DNA of 63,398 nt, filler included, from Globobulimina sp. (Eukaryota): NCBI GenBank assembly GCA_003354225.1. It is 45 parts of 45 records of this genome, joined end to end, with 100 filler letters (N's around TTAATTAATTAA, not from the genome) between each part and the next. Parts side by side here need not be neighbours in the genome. Positions count along the whole stretch, not along the records: positions 33,876 to 35,186 come from PIVH01018909.1; 44 more parts are not named here. One strand, written 5' to 3'. A program made the position numbers and the translations under genes. Under the pieces are notes generated by a model, which was not told the origin of the DNA, ran no database searches, and was given only the letters and a program-made list of their open reading frames with translations. Shown here in pieces: positions 21,177-56,348 of this stretch (within the stretch, counting starts at the first letter, position 1; every line of letters starts with the position of its first letter).

Positions 21177-22426
21177 TTTCAAATGTGATTCCATGAAAAT
21201 GATTTCTTACATGTTTGGATTTTCTTCGCATCCTCGGCCGTGTTGACGTATTATTGCTATTGGGAAAACCCATTCCGCCGCCGGAGGTGGTATAATGTAG
21301 CTCACAGTGCGGCAACTCGTCATACCATCCGTCCTCATCCTCATCCTCATACACATCAAGCACAGGATGGGGCGGTCTCATTAATTCCAATTTATTCCAA
21401 TCGATTCCTTTAAAGAAAGAATGTTTTTGTATTCGAATGAAATTCATCCGTGATTGCCAGGAACATAACAACTTTAAAATACAGTCTTTGGCAGAGGCAG
21501 ACAGTTCAAAATCTATCGCAATGTGCAAAGTCCGTGAATAATTTAAAATATTTCGACATGTCTGCTTTGGCGAAGCGGCATAAAATGGGGTATATCCACA
21601 GAGGCACTCATACAAAATTACCCCCAAACTCCACCAATCACATTCAAATCCATATCCTTTTTTGCTTAATATTTCAGGTGCCACATAATCGGGAGTACCA
21701 ACAATCCGATATAATAATTTCCGATTTTTACGTGATTTTCTTGGAACGACATCATTATGAAATTCTTGCGGATCATAATAGGCTGCGCTGCCAAAGTCGC
21801 ATAGCTTAATATGTCCACTTTTATCTAATAATATATTATCCGGCTTTGACACACAAATAAGATAAATATGTGACAACAAAGAGGGAAAAAAAGAAAAGTC
21901 AAACCTTTATATCACGATGAACATAATTATGACTATGTAAATAATTAATTGCTTTCGCAATTTCAGCTATATAAAATTGTGTATCCTTCTCAGTCAATAC
22001 ATCGCTTTCCATTAATATTTTCATCAAATCACAGGGACAATATTCCTCCACTAAATGTAAATATTTTGTGTCTTGAAAGGACCAATAAAGCTTTATAATG
22101 AGCCAATTATTCAAATTTATTAAAATATCGCGTTCAATGAATATTTGCTTTTCTTGTTTTTTTTTGATCATTAATTTTTTACTCAGAGATTTCAGGGCAA
22201 ACTGATTGTTTTTGCCTTGGAAATGTTTGTAATTTACAAGGCGAACCTCAGCGAAGCCACCTCTTCCAATCACGGATATTTGCTTAAAATCATCAACGTT
22301 TATTTTTTCATATAAATAAGTATGGCACAAATCAATTATTGTCATTGGTATTTTTTTCTTGCTGCGAACCTTTCCTTTATAAAATGTATAAAAAAACCTT
22401 TGTAACTCACGGCTGCATTCGACCAA
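21177..22426 (-). CDS. NDR/LATS-family AGC kinase, two exons
   Basis: 'IGRGGFAEVRL', 'HRDIK|PDN' across intron 21844-21904, 'VGTPDYVAPE', 'ECDWWSLGVI'. Confidence 0.9.
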
Positions 22427-22588
22427 ATGACAATATCCATAGACGAGTAATAAACTTCTTTTTCTATTTGATTCGGTCTGATATCTANNNNNNNNNNNNN
22501 NNNNNNNNNNNNNNNNNNNNNNNNNNNNNNNTTAATTAATTAANNNNNNNNNNNNNNNNNNNNNNNNNNNNNNNNNNNNNNNNNNNNG

Positions 22589-33775: not shown

Positions 33776-34352
33776 NNNNNNNNNNNNNNNNNNNNNNNNN
33801 NNNNNNNNNNNNNNNNNNNTTAATTAATTAANNNNNNNNNNNNNNNNNNNNNNNNNNNNNNNNNNNNNNNNNNNNCGTTCTTCATCATCAGGAGTTTTAG
33901 GGGGTTTCTTTCAAAGACTTGTGATTAAGAATATTTCCTATAGAAATGATCCTGTACAAGTATTTCCTTACAGAATAATAGTTTTAGCATTAAACATTTA
34001 TAAATTTCCATTCCCATCAAACATTTATACATTTCATTCAAACCAATTCCATTTATGGCATTATATTCTTTCTATTCTACATCCAATGCGTGTTTTGCAT
34101 CCGATGCTGTGTATCTACGTGCACGTACTGCATGCATCTATTATGTGTATTTCAGTGTTGAGTGTGCTTGCCATGCCATGCCATGCCATGATGAAATGTT
34201 TTTTTTTTTGAGTATAAATGCTGCTTAATTTCAAATTCAAAAAAATAAATGATTCCAATCCATAAATTGCGGAAATGTTGATTATTTGTGTGCCGCCACC
34301 AATGTGTGCGAATTGTCGATGCAAAAATATAAAAAAAAAGTTGCTTTTGACT

Positions 34353-34554
34353 CGACTCAGATAGGATTTAAACCTATATCTATGTGAATTACACCAACAA
34401 TATGCATTATGGATTATATTTAGGATATGGTAAACAAATAGTTTTGCATAGCCATTACAGCTTACTTTTTCAGATTAGAAAAGGTTAAATGTTGGGGGGG
34501 AAACAGCCGAAGCTGCAGACACACGCTCTATCGATGCAATTGAGCTACTGAGTC
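34353..34554 (-). ncRNA. tRNA-like element (anticodon GCA, Cys) with a ~125-nt insert after position 37; degenerate D- and T-loops
   Basis: Perfect acceptor stem GACTCAG/CTGAGTC, D stem GCTC/GAGC, T stem ATAGG/CCTAT, loop CT-GCA-G. Confidence 0.75.
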
Positions 34555-34659
34555 TTTTGCTTATTTCATTTCTTGTGCATAATACAATTATTGATAAGCT
34601 ATATATATTGCTATTGAATTGCACAAAAACATTAATGGTAAACAGGTAAAAAGAAGGTA

Positions 34660-34875
34660 CAGATGAGATGAGATGAGATGAATATATTAATATTGCAGTT
34701 TAATACAATACAATTGATTACAAAACAGATCGAACAGCTAATTGCAACAAAACAAAACAAAACAAAACAAAACACTCAATTCAATTCAATTCAATTCAAT
34801 TCAATTCGGATATATATATATATATATTTTATTAATTATTGTATTGCAATTAGAATAAGAATGAGAATGAGAATG
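34660..34875. repeat. Cluster of microsatellites: (GATGA)n, (AAAAC)n, (AATTC)n, (AT)n, (GAATGA)n
   Basis: Directly visible. Confidence 0.85.
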
Positions 34876-35286
34876 ACAAGGATATATACGATATATTGCT
34901 CAAACAATTCTGATATAATATTTGCAATTGATTCAATTAATATTCATTATAAAATTAAAATGATCCATCCATGCAATACATTGCATTGCTCCATGTACAA
35001 TAAAATCAAATCAAAATGAATTCAAGTGGCTCCATTTTTACATTGTTAAATACAGGATCGATCCGAACCACTCAAAACTTTAAACTTGCCATTGAGTTGT
35101 CATGATGGATGAGGATGATGTTTTCTAGCTTGCCAATGTATTTATTTAGTTCAACATTTTTAAACAAATTAAATGAAACCATAAGCNNNNNNNNNNNNNN
35201 NNNNNNNNNNNNNNNNNNNNNNNNNNNNNNTTAATTAATTAANNNNNNNNNNNNNNNNNNNNNNNNNNNNNNNNNNNNNNNNNNNN

Positions 35287-36597
35287 TCGACAAGATTGCA
35301 TCGGAAGAGAAAGGGTCCAAAGTTATGCATTCCATGACACTTTCGGTGGTGGAGGGCCCACTGGGGACGGAAGACAAAAATTTGAAATTTCCTGAAATTT
35401 CTCCAAACGGCATTCAGGAGGAAAACTTTTCATCCCTGGATAAGTTGTTAAGAGTAACAGCTTACATTCTTCGTATCTTGGAAAGAGTAAAACGAAGGAA
35501 TGTGCCCAGCAGTAAATCATTGACTTCGGAGGAATTGAGTAGAGCCAAGAAATTGTGGATTGTCTATACTGAAAGGAAATACTATGCTGAAGTGATCGCA
35601 GCAATGGAACGGGAAAAGAGGAATAATTTGAAGGACCAGTTGAATCTGGAAATGGATGATGGTGTCATTAGGTGTAAAGGCAGATATGATCATGCGGAGT
35701 TACCAGAAGCGGCGAGGAAACCTATCCTTCTGCCACGGAAATCATACTTCACCAGATTGATCATTGAAGGCATTCATAAAACAATAATGCACTCGGGCAT
35801 TTCACAAACGTTGGCTCATCTTCGATATGAATTCTGGGTGCCACAAGGTCGAGCGGTGGTACAAAATATCATATTTCACTGCAACGTATGCAGACGGATG
35901 GAAGGTGGTTCATATAAAATGCCAAATATGCCATCATGGCCGAGACAACGGGTATCGGAGTCAACACCATTCAAATATACTGGATTGGATTACTTCGGAC
36001 CTCTGTATATCAAGGAAGGAAGGAACGGGGAAACCAAGAAAGTTTGGGTTTGCCTCTTTACATGTTTATCAGTCCGAGCCGTCCACTTGGAGCTCGTGCA
36101 AGACATGACAACGGAACAATTTTTGCTTTGTCTACGTCGATTTATCGCCCGAAGGGGGACACCGGAACAAATCACTTCGGACAATGCTACACAATTCAAG
36201 GTGTCAAAGGGAATCTTGGATAAAGTATGGAATGTTATACGAAGCGACGAAGTGCAAAGTTACGTGGCAAAGCACAGAATTAAATGGAACTTTATTGTGC
36301 AGTTGGCCCCATGGATGGGAGGATTCTATGAACGGTTAGTTGGGGTAGTAAAACGGTCCCCTAAAAATGTTATTATGACCTCTGAACAGTTGGAAACTGT
36401 ATTGATTGAAGCAGAGGCAGTGGTCAACTCTCATCCTTTGGTACATGTGGATGGGGATATTAATTCAAGTATCACATTATCGCCATCACATTTTCTCACA
36501 CTGAACCCTTACACAGGAATTCCGGAGTGTAAGGAAGATCTTGATCCTGAGTTTCGACTGGATGGTACCATCAGTAAAGCTCAAGAGTTATTGGACA
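35287..36597 (+). mobile_element. BEL/Pao LTR retrotransposon pol fragment (zinc-binding HHCC + DDE integrase)
   Basis: 'H..MHSG..C.VC', 'TGLDYFGP', 'RAVHLELV', 'SDNATQF', 'APWMGGFYERLV'. Confidence 0.95.
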
Positions 36598-38108: not shown

Positions 38109-39101
38109 GATTGTTACTGGGTGCATTGGGTGGTGGTGTGGGTGCCTTTGGTGGCGGTGCCGGTGCATCGGCAAAACCAAAATCGTCCTCAGCACCAAAA
38201 TCAGGCAATGCTTCCAATTCCGGTAATTGTCCAAATCCAATGCCGGAGGGAGCAATCTTATTTTGCTGTTTTCTAAAACCTGACCATCCTTCATCCAGTG
38301 CTAAATTGCCCATTCCGTTGAAGCCAGATAAGGTTGTATTCACTTGAAAGGTTGGCACATTTTCTAAATCCGGTCTATAGGCAATATCATAGGTTTCTTT
38401 GTCGATTAAATTTCGTTTCTCACGAATTGACATTGGTGCTTGAAACATATTCTTTTCTGAATAGAGCTTATCGACACCTTCGATACCCTCCAAGTTCTGT
38501 ATTGCTTCATATCTTAAATAAGGGTTTGTATCTGTGTAATATGGGTAATATGGAGTGTGAGTGCGAGGATATACTATCAATAATTACCTGTATTGAATAA
38601 TAAGCAGTCACCAACATTATCGAGCCATGATGGTAATTTTCCGACGCCTACAATTTTTTCTTCCTGTTTTTTGGCAGTTTTCTCAGATACAGAATGAAAT
38701 AATTTTAATGTATCACAATTTCGCGGATGTTTTAAGCGCTCATTTATTGGTAATTTATACCGTGGCCGCTTAATATATTTTGTTGGTTCGATGGGTGATA
38801 TGAATGCATCATCGGTTTCTTGTTTATCTTTTGGGAACGTGCAATGTGAGAATACAGTGGTTGATTTATTTGGATATTTTGCGACTAAATCAGTTTTTGA
38901 TGCAGCTTTTTGGATTCTTTGTTGTAAGGATTGAATTTTTGAACGTTCTGAATTTATTTGATGTGTTATAGTATCAAATGCTGAATCAAATACACTGCAT
39001 AAATAATTTAAATTATCAACCACTTGGTTTAATGTCTCTGCCGGGGGTAGGTTTTGTAATACTACTGGCATTGCAAATGCCTGGGTTTGTCCGGTTGACA
39101 T
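38109..39101 (-). CDS. WASH1: WASH complex subunit 1 (WAHD domain + proline-rich region), two exons, truncated
   Basis: 'RIQKA..K..L...K.TTVFS...FP' and 'G.GKLP......LLFNT|D.NPY..Y'; intron 38532-38587. Confidence 0.88.
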
Positions 39102-39519
39102 GCTTTCTGGAACTGTTGTGATAATTGTGGTTAAAAAAACTGCTTTCTGTCGCGAGTATAAAAAAAAATTTCTTTTTTTTAGCTGTTATAACATGTTTGA
39201 AATAGTACAGTAAATGGTAGTAAATGGGATTGGTACTGGTAGAAATGGAATTTTATAATTCCTACTCATCGTTTAATATCATCTTCAGACCGTAGATTAC
39301 AATTTTCTTCTTTGTATGGTGCGAAATATGAAGACATTCATAATGTTGGCCAAGCTCTATTCAGAAAAGTCTGTTAAAATGCAAAATATTTCTCATTTTT
39401 CATGATCATTCTCATTTTCNNNNNNNNNNNNNNNNNNNNNNNNNNNNNNNNNNNNNNNNNNNNTTAATTAATTAANNNNNNNNNNNNNNNNNNNNNNNNN
39501 NNNNNNNNNNNNNNNNNNN

Positions 39520-47985: not shown

Positions 47986-48080
47986 CGATGATCAACAAGG
48001 CTGAAAGGCCGGTCATGTATGTCGGCGGCGGGGTAATCTCCAGCGAGTGCTCAGAGCTTGTCAAAAAGATGGCGGAGAAG
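47986..48080 (+). other. ilvB: Bacterial acetolactate synthase large subunit (central domain) fragment fused to dynein
   Basis: 'INKAERPVMYVGGGVISSECSELVKKMAEK' matches the TPP-enzyme central domain; higher GC. Confidence 0.75.
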
Positions 48081-49296
48081 AAACGGATTGAAGATACGGC
48101 CAAAGCCACTGCGGATAAAATGATAGCCGCTACAAATTTAATTGGTTCGTTAGGCGGCGAGAAAGATCGCTGGATTCAGGACGCCGCCAATTTTAAAAAT
48201 GAAAAATGTAAATTGGTGGGCGACGCTGCCATTGCATGCGCCTTTGTATCTTATTGCGGTCCATTTAACCAACAATATCGAAAGAAGATATTAACGCAAT
48301 ATTTTTACGACAATATTAAAAAAATCGGCAATATTTCGGTGACTGAGAACTTAAATATTAATAAATTCCTATGCGATGACAGTATCATTGCGGAGTGGAA
48401 CTCGCAAACCTTGCCCAAGGACGAGCTGTCCATTCAAAATGGCATATTGACCACTTCTGCCACGCGTTGGCCACTTCTGATCGACCCGCAAGGACAGGCC
48501 GCGCAATGGTTGAAGCATAGGGAACATTTGAATTTCCCCTATTTTGGCACCACCTCCATATCGAATCCGCGGCTGCGGGACCAACTAAAATATGCGATGC
48601 AGGAAGGCAAGACTTTGTTGGTGGAAGGCGTGGAGGAGGAATTGGACCCAATGTTGGATCCCGTTTTGGAGAAAAACTTATTCAAACAAGGCAAAACTTA
48701 TTATGTCAAGCTAGGTGACGAGGACGCGGAATTTGACATGAAATTTAAAATGTTTTTTATCACAAAACTGTCGAATCCGCATTTTACGCCGGAGCTGTCG
48801 GCCAAAACTACAGTGGTTGATTTTGCAGTGACGCAGAAAGGATTAGAGGACCAGTTATTGTCTGTTGTCATCAATCAGGAACAGCGGTCGTTGGAAGAGC
48901 AGAGAATCAAATTGATTGAAGAAGTAAATAATAATACGATATCGCTACTCAATTTGGATAAGCAATTATTACAGAAATTGTCTGAAACGGAAGGCGATTT
49001 GTTGGAAGATATTGAATTAATAAATGTGTTGAGCGAGACGAAGAAGTCTGCGTTGGAGGTCAAGACAAAAATTGAATCCTCCAAACAGACGGAAACAATG
49101 ATTAACAAAAAAAGAGAGCAATACAGAACTGTGGCGACACGAGGCTCCATTTTGTATTTTGTGATGGTGGACATGGCTTTGGTAAACTGGATGTATCAAA
49201 CTTCATTGTCTCAGTTTTTAACCTGGTTTCAATATTCCTTATCTGCCTCGAAAGAGTCGAATTTAGTCAATCAGCGCGTGAATAATATAATATCTT
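48075..49296 (+). CDS. Axonemal dynein heavy chain fragment (stalk end + AAA5), outer-arm gamma-like
   Basis: 'LGGEKDRW', 'FVSYCGPFNQ', 'RWPLLIDPQGQ', 'GLEDQLL', 'ATRGSILYF'. Confidence 0.93.
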
Positions 49297-50807: not shown

Positions 50808-51941
50808 CATTTGATCCAATCCATAGTCCTCTTCCCATCCCCAATCACTCCTCGCTTCCGAATCATCAATGGACTGCGGCCACGTCGCAGCAATACCTTG
50901 CCTGAAATCTGGCTGATATTGAATCTCAAACTCAGGCATTTTCCTCTTGATAGACTCGGCTTGCTCCGCAGGCGCAAAACTGACACCGGTCACATTATAC
51001 ACTCTGCTCTTTAACTGCTTATTGTCCGCCTCCATCAACATCATAGTCGACTTTATGCAGTCCGGCATGTACATCATTGGCAATTTCGTTTCTGCCGACA
51101 AGAAGCATTTATAACTCTTCTTTTTGATGGCTTCGTGATATATCTCGACGGCATAGTCGGTGGTCCCGCCGCCCGGCATCGCTTTGGATGATATAATTCC
51201 GGGATAGCGCAATGAGCGAAAGTCGACACCATACCGTTGATAGTAATATTCGCCCAACAACTCCGAGTATACCTTAGTTATTCCATAAATGGTTCTGGGT
51301 CTTTGCACCGTTAACTGCGGCGTTAATTTGCTGGGTGTACTTTCGCCAAATGCTGCGATCGAGGAAGGTATATAGATTCGCAATTGATTCAAGCGCGCCA
51401 CTTCCAACGTATTCTCCACGCCCATATTGTTGATCTTGATTGCCAATTTTGGGTCTTTTTCACCCACAGCGGAGAGCAACGCCGCCATATGGAATATCCA
51501 ATCGATTTGATACTCCATACTGACGCGGGCAATGCTGTTATAATCGCACGTATCTAAGAACACAAAGGGCCCGTTTGAGGCCATGCTGGTTGGCAATTTG
51601 ACATCGGACGCGATGACGTTTTCAATGCCGTAGCGTTTGCGTAAATATGGCACCAATTCTGTACCAATCTGGCCCGAGGCGCCGGTTATTAATACTCGCG
51701 GTTTGGAGTCTGGGTCGAAATAGGCGTCGTGGCGATGGCCAGTTTGCATGTAGCCACCACCGAATCGCTTCCATTTCTGTTGGGATGAAATGTAGGCAGT
51801 GCGTGTCTGGGACTTTATTGGTGTTGTTTTAGGGTTTGGTTTGGTTGTGGTTATGGCTTTTGTTTTTGATGTTGGTGCAATGGTCGAAACCATTCGGATT
51901 GAATGTATGATATATTTGCCTGTATTTGGATTTTGGAACAT
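50808..51941 (-). CDS. TDH: L-threonine 3-dehydrogenase (SDR type), likely mitochondrial
   Basis: 'LITGASGQIG', 'LLSAVGE', 'YGITK', 'PGGGTTDYAV', 'WPQSIDDS'. Confidence 0.95.
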
Positions 51942-55489: not shown

Positions 55490-56348
55490 TCAAATAGAAA
55501 CATCCATGATCCAGGATTCAGAAAAACCATTGATTTTACAATCTTTATTTGTTATCACAACGGAACGATTGGTATCATCACAATATGTCTTTACAACATA
55601 AATTGTTGTTTTTTGACATTCTCTAAAATCATCCACTGCTTTCATTATTTCCTTAACCTTTTTTTTTGATGTAAACTTAGTTGGGAATCTAAGAAGAAAC
55701 ATAAATTCATTTACATTTGAAAATTGTGATAATATATTTATAATTCGCGCAATACGTAAAATTAAATTTGATCCGGATTGTTTTTCCAAAGTAACAGCCG
55801 ATAATTTTACTGAAATTTTAAAACGTTTTCTATTCATTTTTTTTGTGTTATATAAACCAGATTCAATTCCTGCAAACGCAGCTGTACAATGTAATGGATC
55901 TTCGATATGAATATATTCCAATAATGGTTGGCTTGATATTATTTTTTCAATTATATTCTTATCATCTGATGCTACACTAACTTTTCTTAATTGCTTTGCT
56001 GTTTTAACAATAGCATTAATATCATCTGTAGCTATCGGTCCTAGCTGTAATTGTTGCAATTTAGTGAATGAAATGTTTGATTCTATTCCCATGTTTTGAT
56101 ATAAAAACAAATATTCTAATTTATTTCCATAAACACGAAGAAATTTGTTGTCTAGCTCTGCAGCTGCATCACAACGCACTCCTTTTAAATTGACAAATAA
56201 AGTTTGAATGTCTATATTTGAAACAATATTTTCTGAAACGCAAAATAAAAATAAATGTTGAACCATCCGGAATTTTAATAATATCTTTCTCCACAACGCA
56301 GCATCACCGCTCCCTACAAAATTGAGGGATAATGATTTAATATTATTC
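55490..56348 (-). CDS. LRR-like lineage-specific protein, 5' truncated
   Basis: Repeated LxxLxL pattern. Confidence 0.55.

Follow-up and report, generated by a model that had tools for sequence, protein, structure and literature searches.

A probable intron-bearing tRNA-Cys(GCA)-type gene family linked to U3 small nucleolar RNA genes in Globobulimina sp.

The minus strand of positions 34353-34554 in a 63398-base stretch of DNA from Globobulimina sp. (assembly GCA_003354225.1; the whole stretch is called the window below) carries an element of 202 nucleotides (nt) that is probably a nuclear gene of the tRNA-Cys(GCA) type interrupted by a long intron. Judged by its relatives, it belongs to a conserved multi-copy family and lies in a repeated module that joins the tRNA-type gene to a gene for the U3 small nucleolar RNA (snoRNA). 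The reality of the element rests on these homologues and not on its stems: full-length relatives occur in the same AT-rich genome and in GC-richer organisms, several of them are recognized as tRNA genes by standard software, the cloverleaf is retained through compensatory changes, and the exons of the AT-rich copies are almost invariant within diverged flanks.

Structure of the gene

A preliminary description of this DNA had drawn a tRNA-shaped RNA on the minus strand, and the sequence of 34353-34554 reads exactly as written there. The acceptor, D and T stems are perfect as claimed (GACTCAG/CTGAGTC 7/7, GCTC/GAGC 4/4 and ATAGG/CCTAT 5/5), but the anticodon stem drawn as TGTGT/TCACA stands only in part, with four base pairs (bp) formed and a U31.U39 mismatch at a position that is unpaired in all nine aligned family members. 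The hairpin GCAGC-TTCG-GCTGT, which follows CT-GCA-G and pairs the anticodon, is present as described. Similarly, the insert of about 125 nt placed at the 37/38 junction measures 124 nt if that junction is used, but the 35/36 and 36/37 junctions also yield GCA for the window gene. Once the insert is removed, an anticodon loop of 7 nt is obtained, reading CUGCAGU (37/38) or CUGCAAU (36/37 and 35/36), with U33, a purine at position 37 and the GCA anticodon. The parts of the gene, all on the minus strand, are as follows.

34353-34554, minus strand: whole tRNA-Cys(GCA)-type gene, 202 nt including the discriminator G at 34353, with full-length homologues in contigs L001-L003 and L007-L010
34513-34554, minus strand: 5' exon (37/38 reading), with 29/29 columns outside the D loop invariant among five paralogues
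34548-34554, minus strand: 5' strand of the acceptor stem, followed by U8 and A9
34542-34545 and 34525-34528, minus strand: D stem, enclosing a 13-nt D loop at 34529-34541
34519-34523, minus strand: 5' strand of the anticodon stem, followed by C32, U33, GCA (34514-34516) and G37 (34513)
34503-34516, minus strand: hairpin GCAGC-UUCG-GCUGU, in which the anticodon pairs with the start of the insert
34389-34512, minus strand: insert or putative intron, 124 nt under the 37/38 reading, following G37 and preceding U38
34489-34494, minus strand: CCAACA, 5' strand of a possible helix around the variable middle of the insert (prediction of the constrained fold)
34394-34399, minus strand: UGUUGG, 3' strand pairing with CCAACA, predicted in the constrained fold
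34354-34388, minus strand: 3' exon, starting with U38, with 34/35 columns invariant among five paralogues
34383-34387, minus strand: 3' strand of the anticodon stem, with the variable loop at 34378-34382
34373-34377 and 34361-34365, minus strand: T stem, enclosing the T loop TTTAAAT at 34366-34372
34354-34360, minus strand: 3' strand of the acceptor stem
34331-34339, minus strand: run of nine T, a likely RNA polymerase III terminator, beginning 14 nt past the end of the gene

Two other statements of the preliminary description hold only partly. The A and B boxes had been called degenerate, yet TAGCTCAATTG and GGTTTAAATCC each depart by one position from the A-box and B-box consensus, respectively. 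Of the pairings proposed within the insert, CCAACA/TGTTGG recurs in the paralogues, although no pair in it is changed on both sides, while TATGCA/TGCATA and the second anticodon-like element CTGTAA are private to the window copy.

Copies and relatives of the gene

Exact-pattern scans gave the ten contigs referred to here as L001-L010, of which L001-L006 come from metagenomes and L007-L010 are genome contigs. A 21-mer that takes in the anticodon stem and loop and the first bases of the hairpin matched the six metagenome contigs, and a 21-mer spanning the T arm and acceptor stem matched the four genome contigs; the same four were found again when the 5' 21-mer was run on the genome contigs. There was no metagenome match for a 24-mer from the 3' half of the gene, no match among the genome contigs for a 24-mer from the GC-richer relatives, and no match in a scan of viral sequences. 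BLASTN comparison of 321 bases around the element within the window, which had been envisaged as a count of copies, returned the self-match only. The scans provide eight further complete family genes, namely those of L007-L010, L001, L002 and L003 (872-1081), together with a divergent one in L003 (107-329). Four of the eight are AT-rich paralogues of the window gene (L007-L010; 30-32% GC) and four come from GC-richer organisms, the genomes of L001, L002 and L003:872-1081 having 41-48% GC. The divergent paralogue, L003:107-329 (minus strand), has the most canonical tRNA body of the family (GG in the D loop and TTCGAAT in the T loop). In addition, L002:1115-1334 (plus strand) is a different tRNA gene that has canonical D (GG) and T loops, a 146-nt insert with a covarying hairpin that starts at position 34, and an anticodon that is GUG or GUA depending on the junction.

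Contigs L004 (673 onward) and L006 (minus strand, 4172 onward) carry copies of the 5' half only, with a 5' exon that continues into the insert for ~20-30 nt; these copies are probably fragments. Contigs L007-L010, three of which contain the start of a U3 gene, are filed under a gammaproteobacterial metagenome-assembled genome. That bin (L007-L010, L024 and L041-L055) contains many short contigs of 29-38% GC with tRNA genes of eukaryotic type, and its short AT-rich contigs are probably host DNA that was binned by mistake.

Contigs of public sequencing runs were also aligned to the 1311-bp piece of the window that holds the gene, giving a summed depth that is not a copy number. In run X1 this depth is 1600 and 3107 on the two exon halves and 2262 on the U3 sequence, compared with 41-89 on single-copy stretches, and the middle of the insert is at single-copy depth. 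We take these values only to mean that there are many copies, and thus that the element is multi-copy in its source organism. In X1 the depth of the 5' half is about double that of the 3' half, and fragments of the kind seen in L004 and L006 may account for this. The run contigs leave the window sequence inside the insert, where, by eye, their loose ends agree with the L007 and L008 inserts, and none of them has a joint at the exon borders. The run contigs contain two joints, from 34401 to 34466 and from 34403 to 34502; the sides of both are short, and both are compatible with paralogues whose inserts are shorter. Runs X6 and X7 contribute one weak piece each. Run X2 leaves parts of the piece without cover, and in its contigs the end of an Illumina adapter directly abuts position 34356, three bases in from the 3' terminus of the gene; neither observation is taken as evidence here. 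The suggestion in the preliminary description that this is a repeated family has therefore been borne out, given the depth and the L007-L010 copies on the one hand and conservation in other organisms (L001-L003) on the other.

Evidence that the family consists of tRNA-type genes

Half of the eight relatives reach the gathering score of 29 bits for the Rfam tRNA family RF00005, with full-model matches that extend across the insert (41.6 bits for L009, 41.5 for L008, 40.9 for L003:107-329 and 35.6 for L010). When introns are allowed, ARAGORN calls tRNA-Cys(gca) in L002, L003:107-329 and L008 with introns of 134, 148 and 127 nt, respectively, and L001 is called over the same span with another anticodon; the other four of the eight relatives are uncalled. 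The Cys-type gene of L001, L002 and L003 precedes a tRNA-Arg(CCG) gene (67.3 bits) by 11-16 nt, and a tRNA-Sec gene (68.7-74.8 bits) comes next. L001 also contains a U2 small nuclear RNA (snRNA) gene, and fragments of signal recognition particle RNA are seen in L001 and L002. No T run is present between the Cys-type gene and tRNA-Arg in these three contigs, and because nothing of this kind separates them the two genes may be co-transcribed. More generally, a run of at least four T occurs within 32 nt downstream in 7/10 genes, and the other three directly precede another tRNA gene.

Further support is provided by the pattern of substitutions. In an alignment of nine sequences, 94.9% of the cells in the cloverleaf and hairpin are paired, and sliding the 3' partner reduces pairing to 27-55%. 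Six pairs are changed on both sides, as against 1.9 +/- 0.9 in shuffled alignments, and none of 500 shuffles reaches six. Four of the five T-stem pairs are among those with two-sided changes, ATAGG/CCTAT being replaced by GTCGG/CCGAC, GCCGG/CCGGC or GTGAG/CTCAC. The check for covariation among copies that the preliminary description had proposed is thus positive and, as read from the alignment, the cloverleaf is kept by compensatory changes. Taken with the matches to tRNA models, this identifies a family of tRNA-type genes, to which the window copy belongs by homology even though it fails the detectors itself. A genuine tRNA-Cys gene, which the preliminary description had set against its own interpretation, is now the favoured outcome, given relatives that pass Rfam and ARAGORN, their place in tRNA clusters, and the covariation.

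The cloverleaf-constrained fold of the window gene costs 1.2 kcal/mol over the free fold. We rejected the minimum-free-energy fold, in which the D loop pairs with the end of the insert over 14 bp at the expense of the D arm, because the D loop differs in every paralogue. RNAalifold applied to the five AT-rich paralogues returned a fold that is not a cloverleaf and has no covariation, a result that is uninformative because the exons are invariant.

Constraint on the exons and the anticodon hairpin

Among the five AT-rich paralogues, the window copy included, 63/64 exon columns outside the D loop are invariant. Pairwise identity in the insert is 93.9% over the first 20 nt, 57.1% in the middle and 66.2% over the last 13 nt, and the flanks are 58.1% (upstream 126 nt) and 40.4% (downstream region) identical. 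The D loop, which is only 63.5% identical and varies from 9 to 16 nt, starts with AA and ends with GATA, with an AT-rich insertion between. Gene conversion is excluded because this variable loop sits inside an otherwise invariant 5' exon, and so, on the comparison of these copies, the invariance of the exons is due to selection and not to recent copying or gene conversion. Strong constraint extends from the exons over the first 20 nt of the insert but does not include its middle.

The elbow of the molecule is the other region in which the family departs from convention. All four AT-rich paralogues share the state of the window copy, having a D loop without GG and the T loop TTTAAAT. In the GC-richer relatives the D loops are 8-10 nt, the T loop is TTCAAAT or TTCGAAT in three of four, and GG is present in one. 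The other tRNA genes of the AT-rich organism, one of which has an 11-nt intron, are canonical (GG, TTCGA), and the atypical D loop, T loop and discriminator base (N73) are therefore specific to this family. A mitochondrial origin, which we considered on account of the degenerate D and T loops, was rejected because some relatives have canonical T loops, because nuclear tRNA clusters contain such genes, and because of the linkage to U3.

The hairpin over the anticodon is kept in all ten genes and always starts at position 34. Its sequence, GCAGC-UUCG-GCUGU, is identical in 8/10 and is present also in L004-L006. In the two remaining genes it has changed with retention of pairing: L003:107-329 has GCGGC-UUUCAU-GCCGU, in which one pair is altered on both sides, and L002:1115-1334 has GUGUCC-UCU-GGACAU, in which three pairs differ from the Cys type. 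On this comparative evidence, the hairpin is a selected feature of the precursors. Pairing between anticodon and intron is usual in tRNA precursors; here the pairing partner is at the 5' end of a long insert, giving a local, capped hairpin. Insert length in the family is 117-148 nt. Elsewhere in the insert, CCAACA/UGUUGG is weakly kept, by eye, in the GC-richer relatives, and an 8-bp internal helix is kept in three GC-richer Cys genes with one change from G-C to A-U, an observation made on three sequences.

Linkage to U3 and a shared upstream motif

The window gene is followed, in the same orientation, by the start of a U3 snoRNA gene, and further sequence elements lie upstream of each.

33876-33969, minus strand: 5' part of a U3 snoRNA gene, cut by the end of the contig, 384 nt downstream of the tRNA-type gene
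34631-34640, minus strand: TACCATTAAT, a variant of the motif TACCATAAAT, at -86 from the start of the tRNA-type gene
34599-34607, minus strand: the block TATATATAG, at -53, inside a conserved upstream block
34051-34060, minus strand: TGCCATAAAT, the same upstream motif, at -91 of the U3 start

The Rfam match to ACEA_U3 at 33876-33969 scores 29.6 bits (E 0.0013), which is below the gathering score because the gene is truncated. A U3 gene in the same orientation follows after 384 nt in the window, 435 nt in L008, 396 nt in L009 (where the match is at 813-930) and 474 nt in L010, that is, in all four copies with enough downstream sequence. The copies share ~90 bp upstream and ~500 bp downstream, including U3, and in run X1 the summed depth of the U3 sequence is ~25-fold higher than that of its single-copy neighbours. 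The 10-mer TACCATAAAT, or a one-base variant of it, is found at -93, -93, -94, -86 and -79 of the tRNA-type gene (5/5 copies) and at -93, -93, -93 and -91 of the U3 start (4/4 copies); these copies are paralogues and not independent observations. Its position suggests that TACCATAAAT may serve as a common upstream promoter element of the tRNA-type and U3 genes. An external element of this sort would fit, because the internal B box lacks C56.

Position of the splice junction

Canonical eukaryotic tRNA introns span 6-133 nt (PMC4090602), so that the 124-nt insert of the window gene is within the range, near its top, and the relatives with inserts of 134-148 nt exceed it. The tRNA splicing endonuclease acts by a ruler mechanism, and pairing of anticodon and intron is no prerequisite for splicing in yeast and Xenopus (PMC4090602).

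An alternative that we regard as tentative and rather unlikely is that the inserts are not canonical 37/38 introns but interrupt the anticodon between positions 35 and 36. This is the only junction that yields standard anticodons in all three types of gene, namely GCA in the window gene, GCA in L003:107-329 and GUA in L002:1115-1334. An A-R-U triplet directly precedes the 3' strand of the anticodon stem in 10/10 genes, and if the cut were at 35/36 the third anticodon base and positions 37-38 would be supplied by this triplet from the 3' exon. The "GCA" of the 5' part would then be partly intron, kept only as one strand of a hairpin that marks the cut, which would explain why position 36 of the 5' part is free to go from A to G, given a compensating substitution in the hairpin.

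Weighing the explanations

We favour the interpretation of the element as an intron-bearing tRNA-Cys(GCA)-type gene. In this interpretation, the gene would be transcribed with help from the upstream element, such help being postulated because the internal B box has U56 and the D loop lacks GG. The precursor would fold into a cloverleaf plus the anticodon-intron hairpin, the tRNA splicing endonuclease would remove the insert by measuring from the tRNA body, and the ligated product would decode Cys codons.

Several observations weigh against this interpretation. The first group concerns recognition of the genes. ARAGORN finds no tRNA gene in the window whether or not introns are allowed, so that the long-intron search suggested at the outset leaves the window copy uncalled, and none of 88 junction combinations of the window gene spliced in silico is called either. 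Lower stringency did not help: at ps80 ARAGORN made 130 calls in the window, which we discarded as noise, and the in-silico spliced forms gave shifting anticodons. In Rfam, neither the window nor the piece has an RF00005 match at the gathering score, a search with 231 bases around the window copy gives a partial tRNA match of 13.1 bits, and the remaining four of the eight relatives stay below the tRNA threshold. As for the copies themselves, L004 and L006 have no 3' exon within 1.5 kb, and the copy in L005 is cut by the end of the contig. The second group concerns the tRNA body. Conserved elbow nucleotides of tRNA are G18 and G19 in the D loop and T54, Psi55 and C56 in the T loop. The D loop AATTGCATCGATA (13 nt) has no G18 G19 and the T loop TTTAAAT has U at the position of C56, in agreement with the earlier remark that the loops lack GG and TTC. 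As an identity element of tRNA-Cys the discriminator base is U73; the window copy has G at this position, the four paralogues have A, A, G and T, and each of the four GC-richer relatives has A. Finally, modelling by hand at junctions 35/36, 36/37 and 37/38 produced neither a bulge-helix-bulge motif nor an anticodon-intron (A-I) pair, and in the cloverleaf-constrained fold the 37/38 cut is predicted to fall inside the stem of the hairpin. In L003:107-329 the 37/38 junction gives GCG, and only 35/36 gives GCA. In L002:1115-1334 the 37/38 junction gives GUG with U37, compared with GUG and G37 for 36/37, and GUA and G37 for 35/36.

Much of this would be accommodated if the product were a tRNA-derived structured non-coding RNA of ~200 nt, made from an snRNA-type upstream element and given tRNA-like end processing, but never spliced or charged, its anticodon being permanently covered by the hairpin. 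The D loop and discriminator could then drift while all stems stay frozen, U56 and the lack of GG would be of no consequence, and the absence of U73 from every member but L010 (T) would be expected; so would the conserved and covarying hairpin and the failure to construct a splice-site motif. The upstream motif is at the same distance as in U3, with which the gene is co-amplified, and the 202-nt RNA as a whole is more stably folded than its shuffles (z -3.08, with 0/200 shuffles as low). We nevertheless consider this explanation doubtful. The context C32 U33 GCA R37 is invariant, for which a non-decoding RNA has no obvious need, and among the GC-richer relatives the T loops are canonical and the genes are neighbours of ordinary tRNA genes. 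Moreover, conservation is poor in the middle of the insert, which makes up more than half of the RNA, and the insert alone folds no better than shuffles (z -0.26).

That the window copy is a decaying, functionless pseudogene, carried along in a segmental duplication with the U3 gene, strikes us as improbable. Its failure in ARAGORN and Rfam, the odd 13-nt D loop and G73 would be explained in this way; copies of the 5' half alone do exist (L004 and L006), and the flanks show that copies arose by duplication of a larger unit. Neutral decay, however, is not the pattern observed, since outside the D loop and N73 the exons are identical to those of four paralogues while the flanks are 40-58% identical, and the variable D loop within the invariant 5' exon means that gene conversion cannot account for this. 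The upstream motif and the terminator are also intact in the window copy.

Even less probable, in our estimation, is the idea that the tRNA body serves mainly as a carrier and that the useful product is the excised insert, in linear or circular form, as in the tRNA intronic circular RNAs (tricRNAs) of animals. Every member, in whichever organism, has kept a long insert, the first 20 nt of which hardly vary, the 8-bp internal helix recurs in three GC-richer Cys genes with its single G-C to A-U change, and the 113-nt Drosophila intron that gives tric31905 offers a precedent, as far as the accessible part of that report goes (PMC4536317). The middle of the insert is, however, the least conserved part of the gene, no Rfam family matches the insert, no box C/D or H/ACA motifs were seen by eye, and the helix has been seen in three sequences only. 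The preliminary description had raised the possibility of a carrier for an intron-encoded RNA, and this is weakened by an identity of 57% in the middle of the insert against 98-100% in the exons outside the D loop.

The view that inverted repeats of AT-rich DNA fell into this layout by chance, for which one can cite the 0.45 occurrences of three perfect stems expected per window, is already refuted by the full-length homologues and compensatory changes, some of the homologues passing Rfam and ARAGORN. Chance could produce the stems by themselves: the real window has two sites with three perfect stems in tRNA geometry, against a mean of 0.45 in 40 first-order Markov simulations, of which 12 contain at least one such arrangement. 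Given this expectation, the second site, at 55577-55730 (minus strand), is probably a chance match.

Source of the sequence and neighbouring genes

The window contains 88 runs of exactly 44 N, which are paired around the six-frame stop word TTAATTAATTAA. This layout (N44-TTAATTAATTAA-N44) divides it into 45 pieces, of which 11 are 1312 bp, 26 are 1311 bp and eight are 1310 bp, ordered by descending length. A synthetic construct had been suspected from the periodic N runs and was ruled out, the pieces being length-sorted contigs with six-frame-stop linkers. The window strings together, by means of linkers, short contigs from a single assembly; any feature running across a linker is an artefact, and statements about "the contig" are valid only for a single piece of 1.3 kb. 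The piece that holds the tRNA-type gene (33876-35186) is 1311 bp long and has no open reading frame (ORF) of at least 150 aa. The preliminary claim that the contig has no credible protein gene is thus right for this piece but not for the window, in which 40/45 pieces have a standard-code ORF of at least 150 aa and the longest ORF averages 271 aa per piece compared with 73 aa in shuffled pieces.

The window is AT-rich (GC ~31%), and Pfam matches among its ORFs include dynein AAA_9 (E 2.8e-79), PH, FAT, a retroviral-type integrase and an epimerase. The neighbouring piece encodes a fragment of a retrotransposon integrase at 35289-36596 (plus strand), a dynein heavy chain fragment is encoded at 47988-49295 (plus strand), and a complete-looking threonine 3-dehydrogenase is encoded at 50808-51941 (minus strand). 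The latter is the epimerase ORF; its closest named relative, at 69% identity, bears the label MMETSP1385, and it is 94% and 87% identical over partial lengths to EukProt entries. MMETSP1385 is listed as the foraminifer Elphidium margaritaceum (PMC6783311), so that the sequence itself points to an AT-rich eukaryote, probably a foraminiferan. In the pieces at 21178-22486 and 38110-39185 (both minus strand), pairs of long ORFs abut in different frames with an overlap of 4-5 bases, which suggests frameshifts due to assembly errors, pseudogenes or very short introns.

Relation to known systems

The gene is unusual in detail but of a known kind. With nuclear intron-containing tRNA genes, in which the intron lies one nucleotide 3' of the anticodon and is removed by Sen/TSEN, it shares an insert in the anticodon loop that pairs with the anticodon, an exon cloverleaf, a T-run terminator, and a length of 124 nt inside the 6-133 nt range (PMC4090602). 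It differs from them in belonging to a Cys family, in having a UUCG-capped hairpin whose partner is at the 5' end of the insert, in the failure to find a bulged 3' splice site or A-I pair, and in its atypical D loop, C56 position and N73. The Drosophila tRNA:Tyr gene CR31905 also has an intron of more than 100 nt (113 nt), which in the accessible part of the report yields the circular RNA tric31905 (PMC4536317); it is from another tRNA family and lineage. The non-canonical introns of Cyanidioschyzon merolae and of nucleomorphs resemble the present case in that, for two divergent relatives, a sensible anticodon is obtained only with a junction 5' of position 37, which would be a non-canonical site like those of these genomes (PMC4090602, PMC3728597). 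Those introns, however, are short and flanked by bulge-helix-bulge motifs, none of which was found here, and the canonical junction works for the window gene.

Two systems are relevant to the upstream motif. Vertebrate tRNA-Sec genes have extragenic, U6-like promoters, according to the part of the report available (PMC2943599), and thus share with the present family an upstream element in common with a small nuclear or nucleolar RNA gene, although here the role of that element is suggested by position only. In trypanosomatids, snRNA and U3 genes depend on an upstream tRNA or tRNA-like gene, as described in the accessible part of PMC4950102. The arrangement seen here, with both genes in the same orientation and the tRNA-type gene 384-474 nt upstream, does not match the trypanosomatid one. 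There, the companion tRNA is divergent and ~100 bp upstream of the U-RNA gene. Short interspersed elements derived from tRNA are likewise multi-copy, but we rejected this classification because flanks including the downstream U3 are homologous among copies, and no tail or target-site duplications were seen. Within the open-access literature on tRNA genes of foraminifera and Reticulomyxa and on intron-bearing tRNA-Cys, we found no description of such genes, and the accessible part of one foraminiferal report refers to ordinary tRNA genes only (PMC3079666).

Biological implications

Standard tRNA finders miss the window gene and half of its relatives and, as a result, genomes of this lineage would be reported without tRNA-Cys unless long introns are allowed. 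The family shows which features of a tRNA can be relaxed while the stems stay frozen, namely the length of the D loop, C56 and N73. It also provides a conserved intron of more than 100 nt outside animals, which lets the yield of stable RNA from such introns be tested. The two divergent relatives pose a testable question, namely where the endonuclease cuts, and a 35/36 junction, if true, would mean that, beyond the red algae and nucleomorphs, a nuclear tRNA endonuclease follows a splice-site rule that is new. Finally, the 10-mer found at about -93 of both the tRNA-type and U3 genes would be a first candidate for a small-RNA promoter element in a group whose expression signals are scarcely known.

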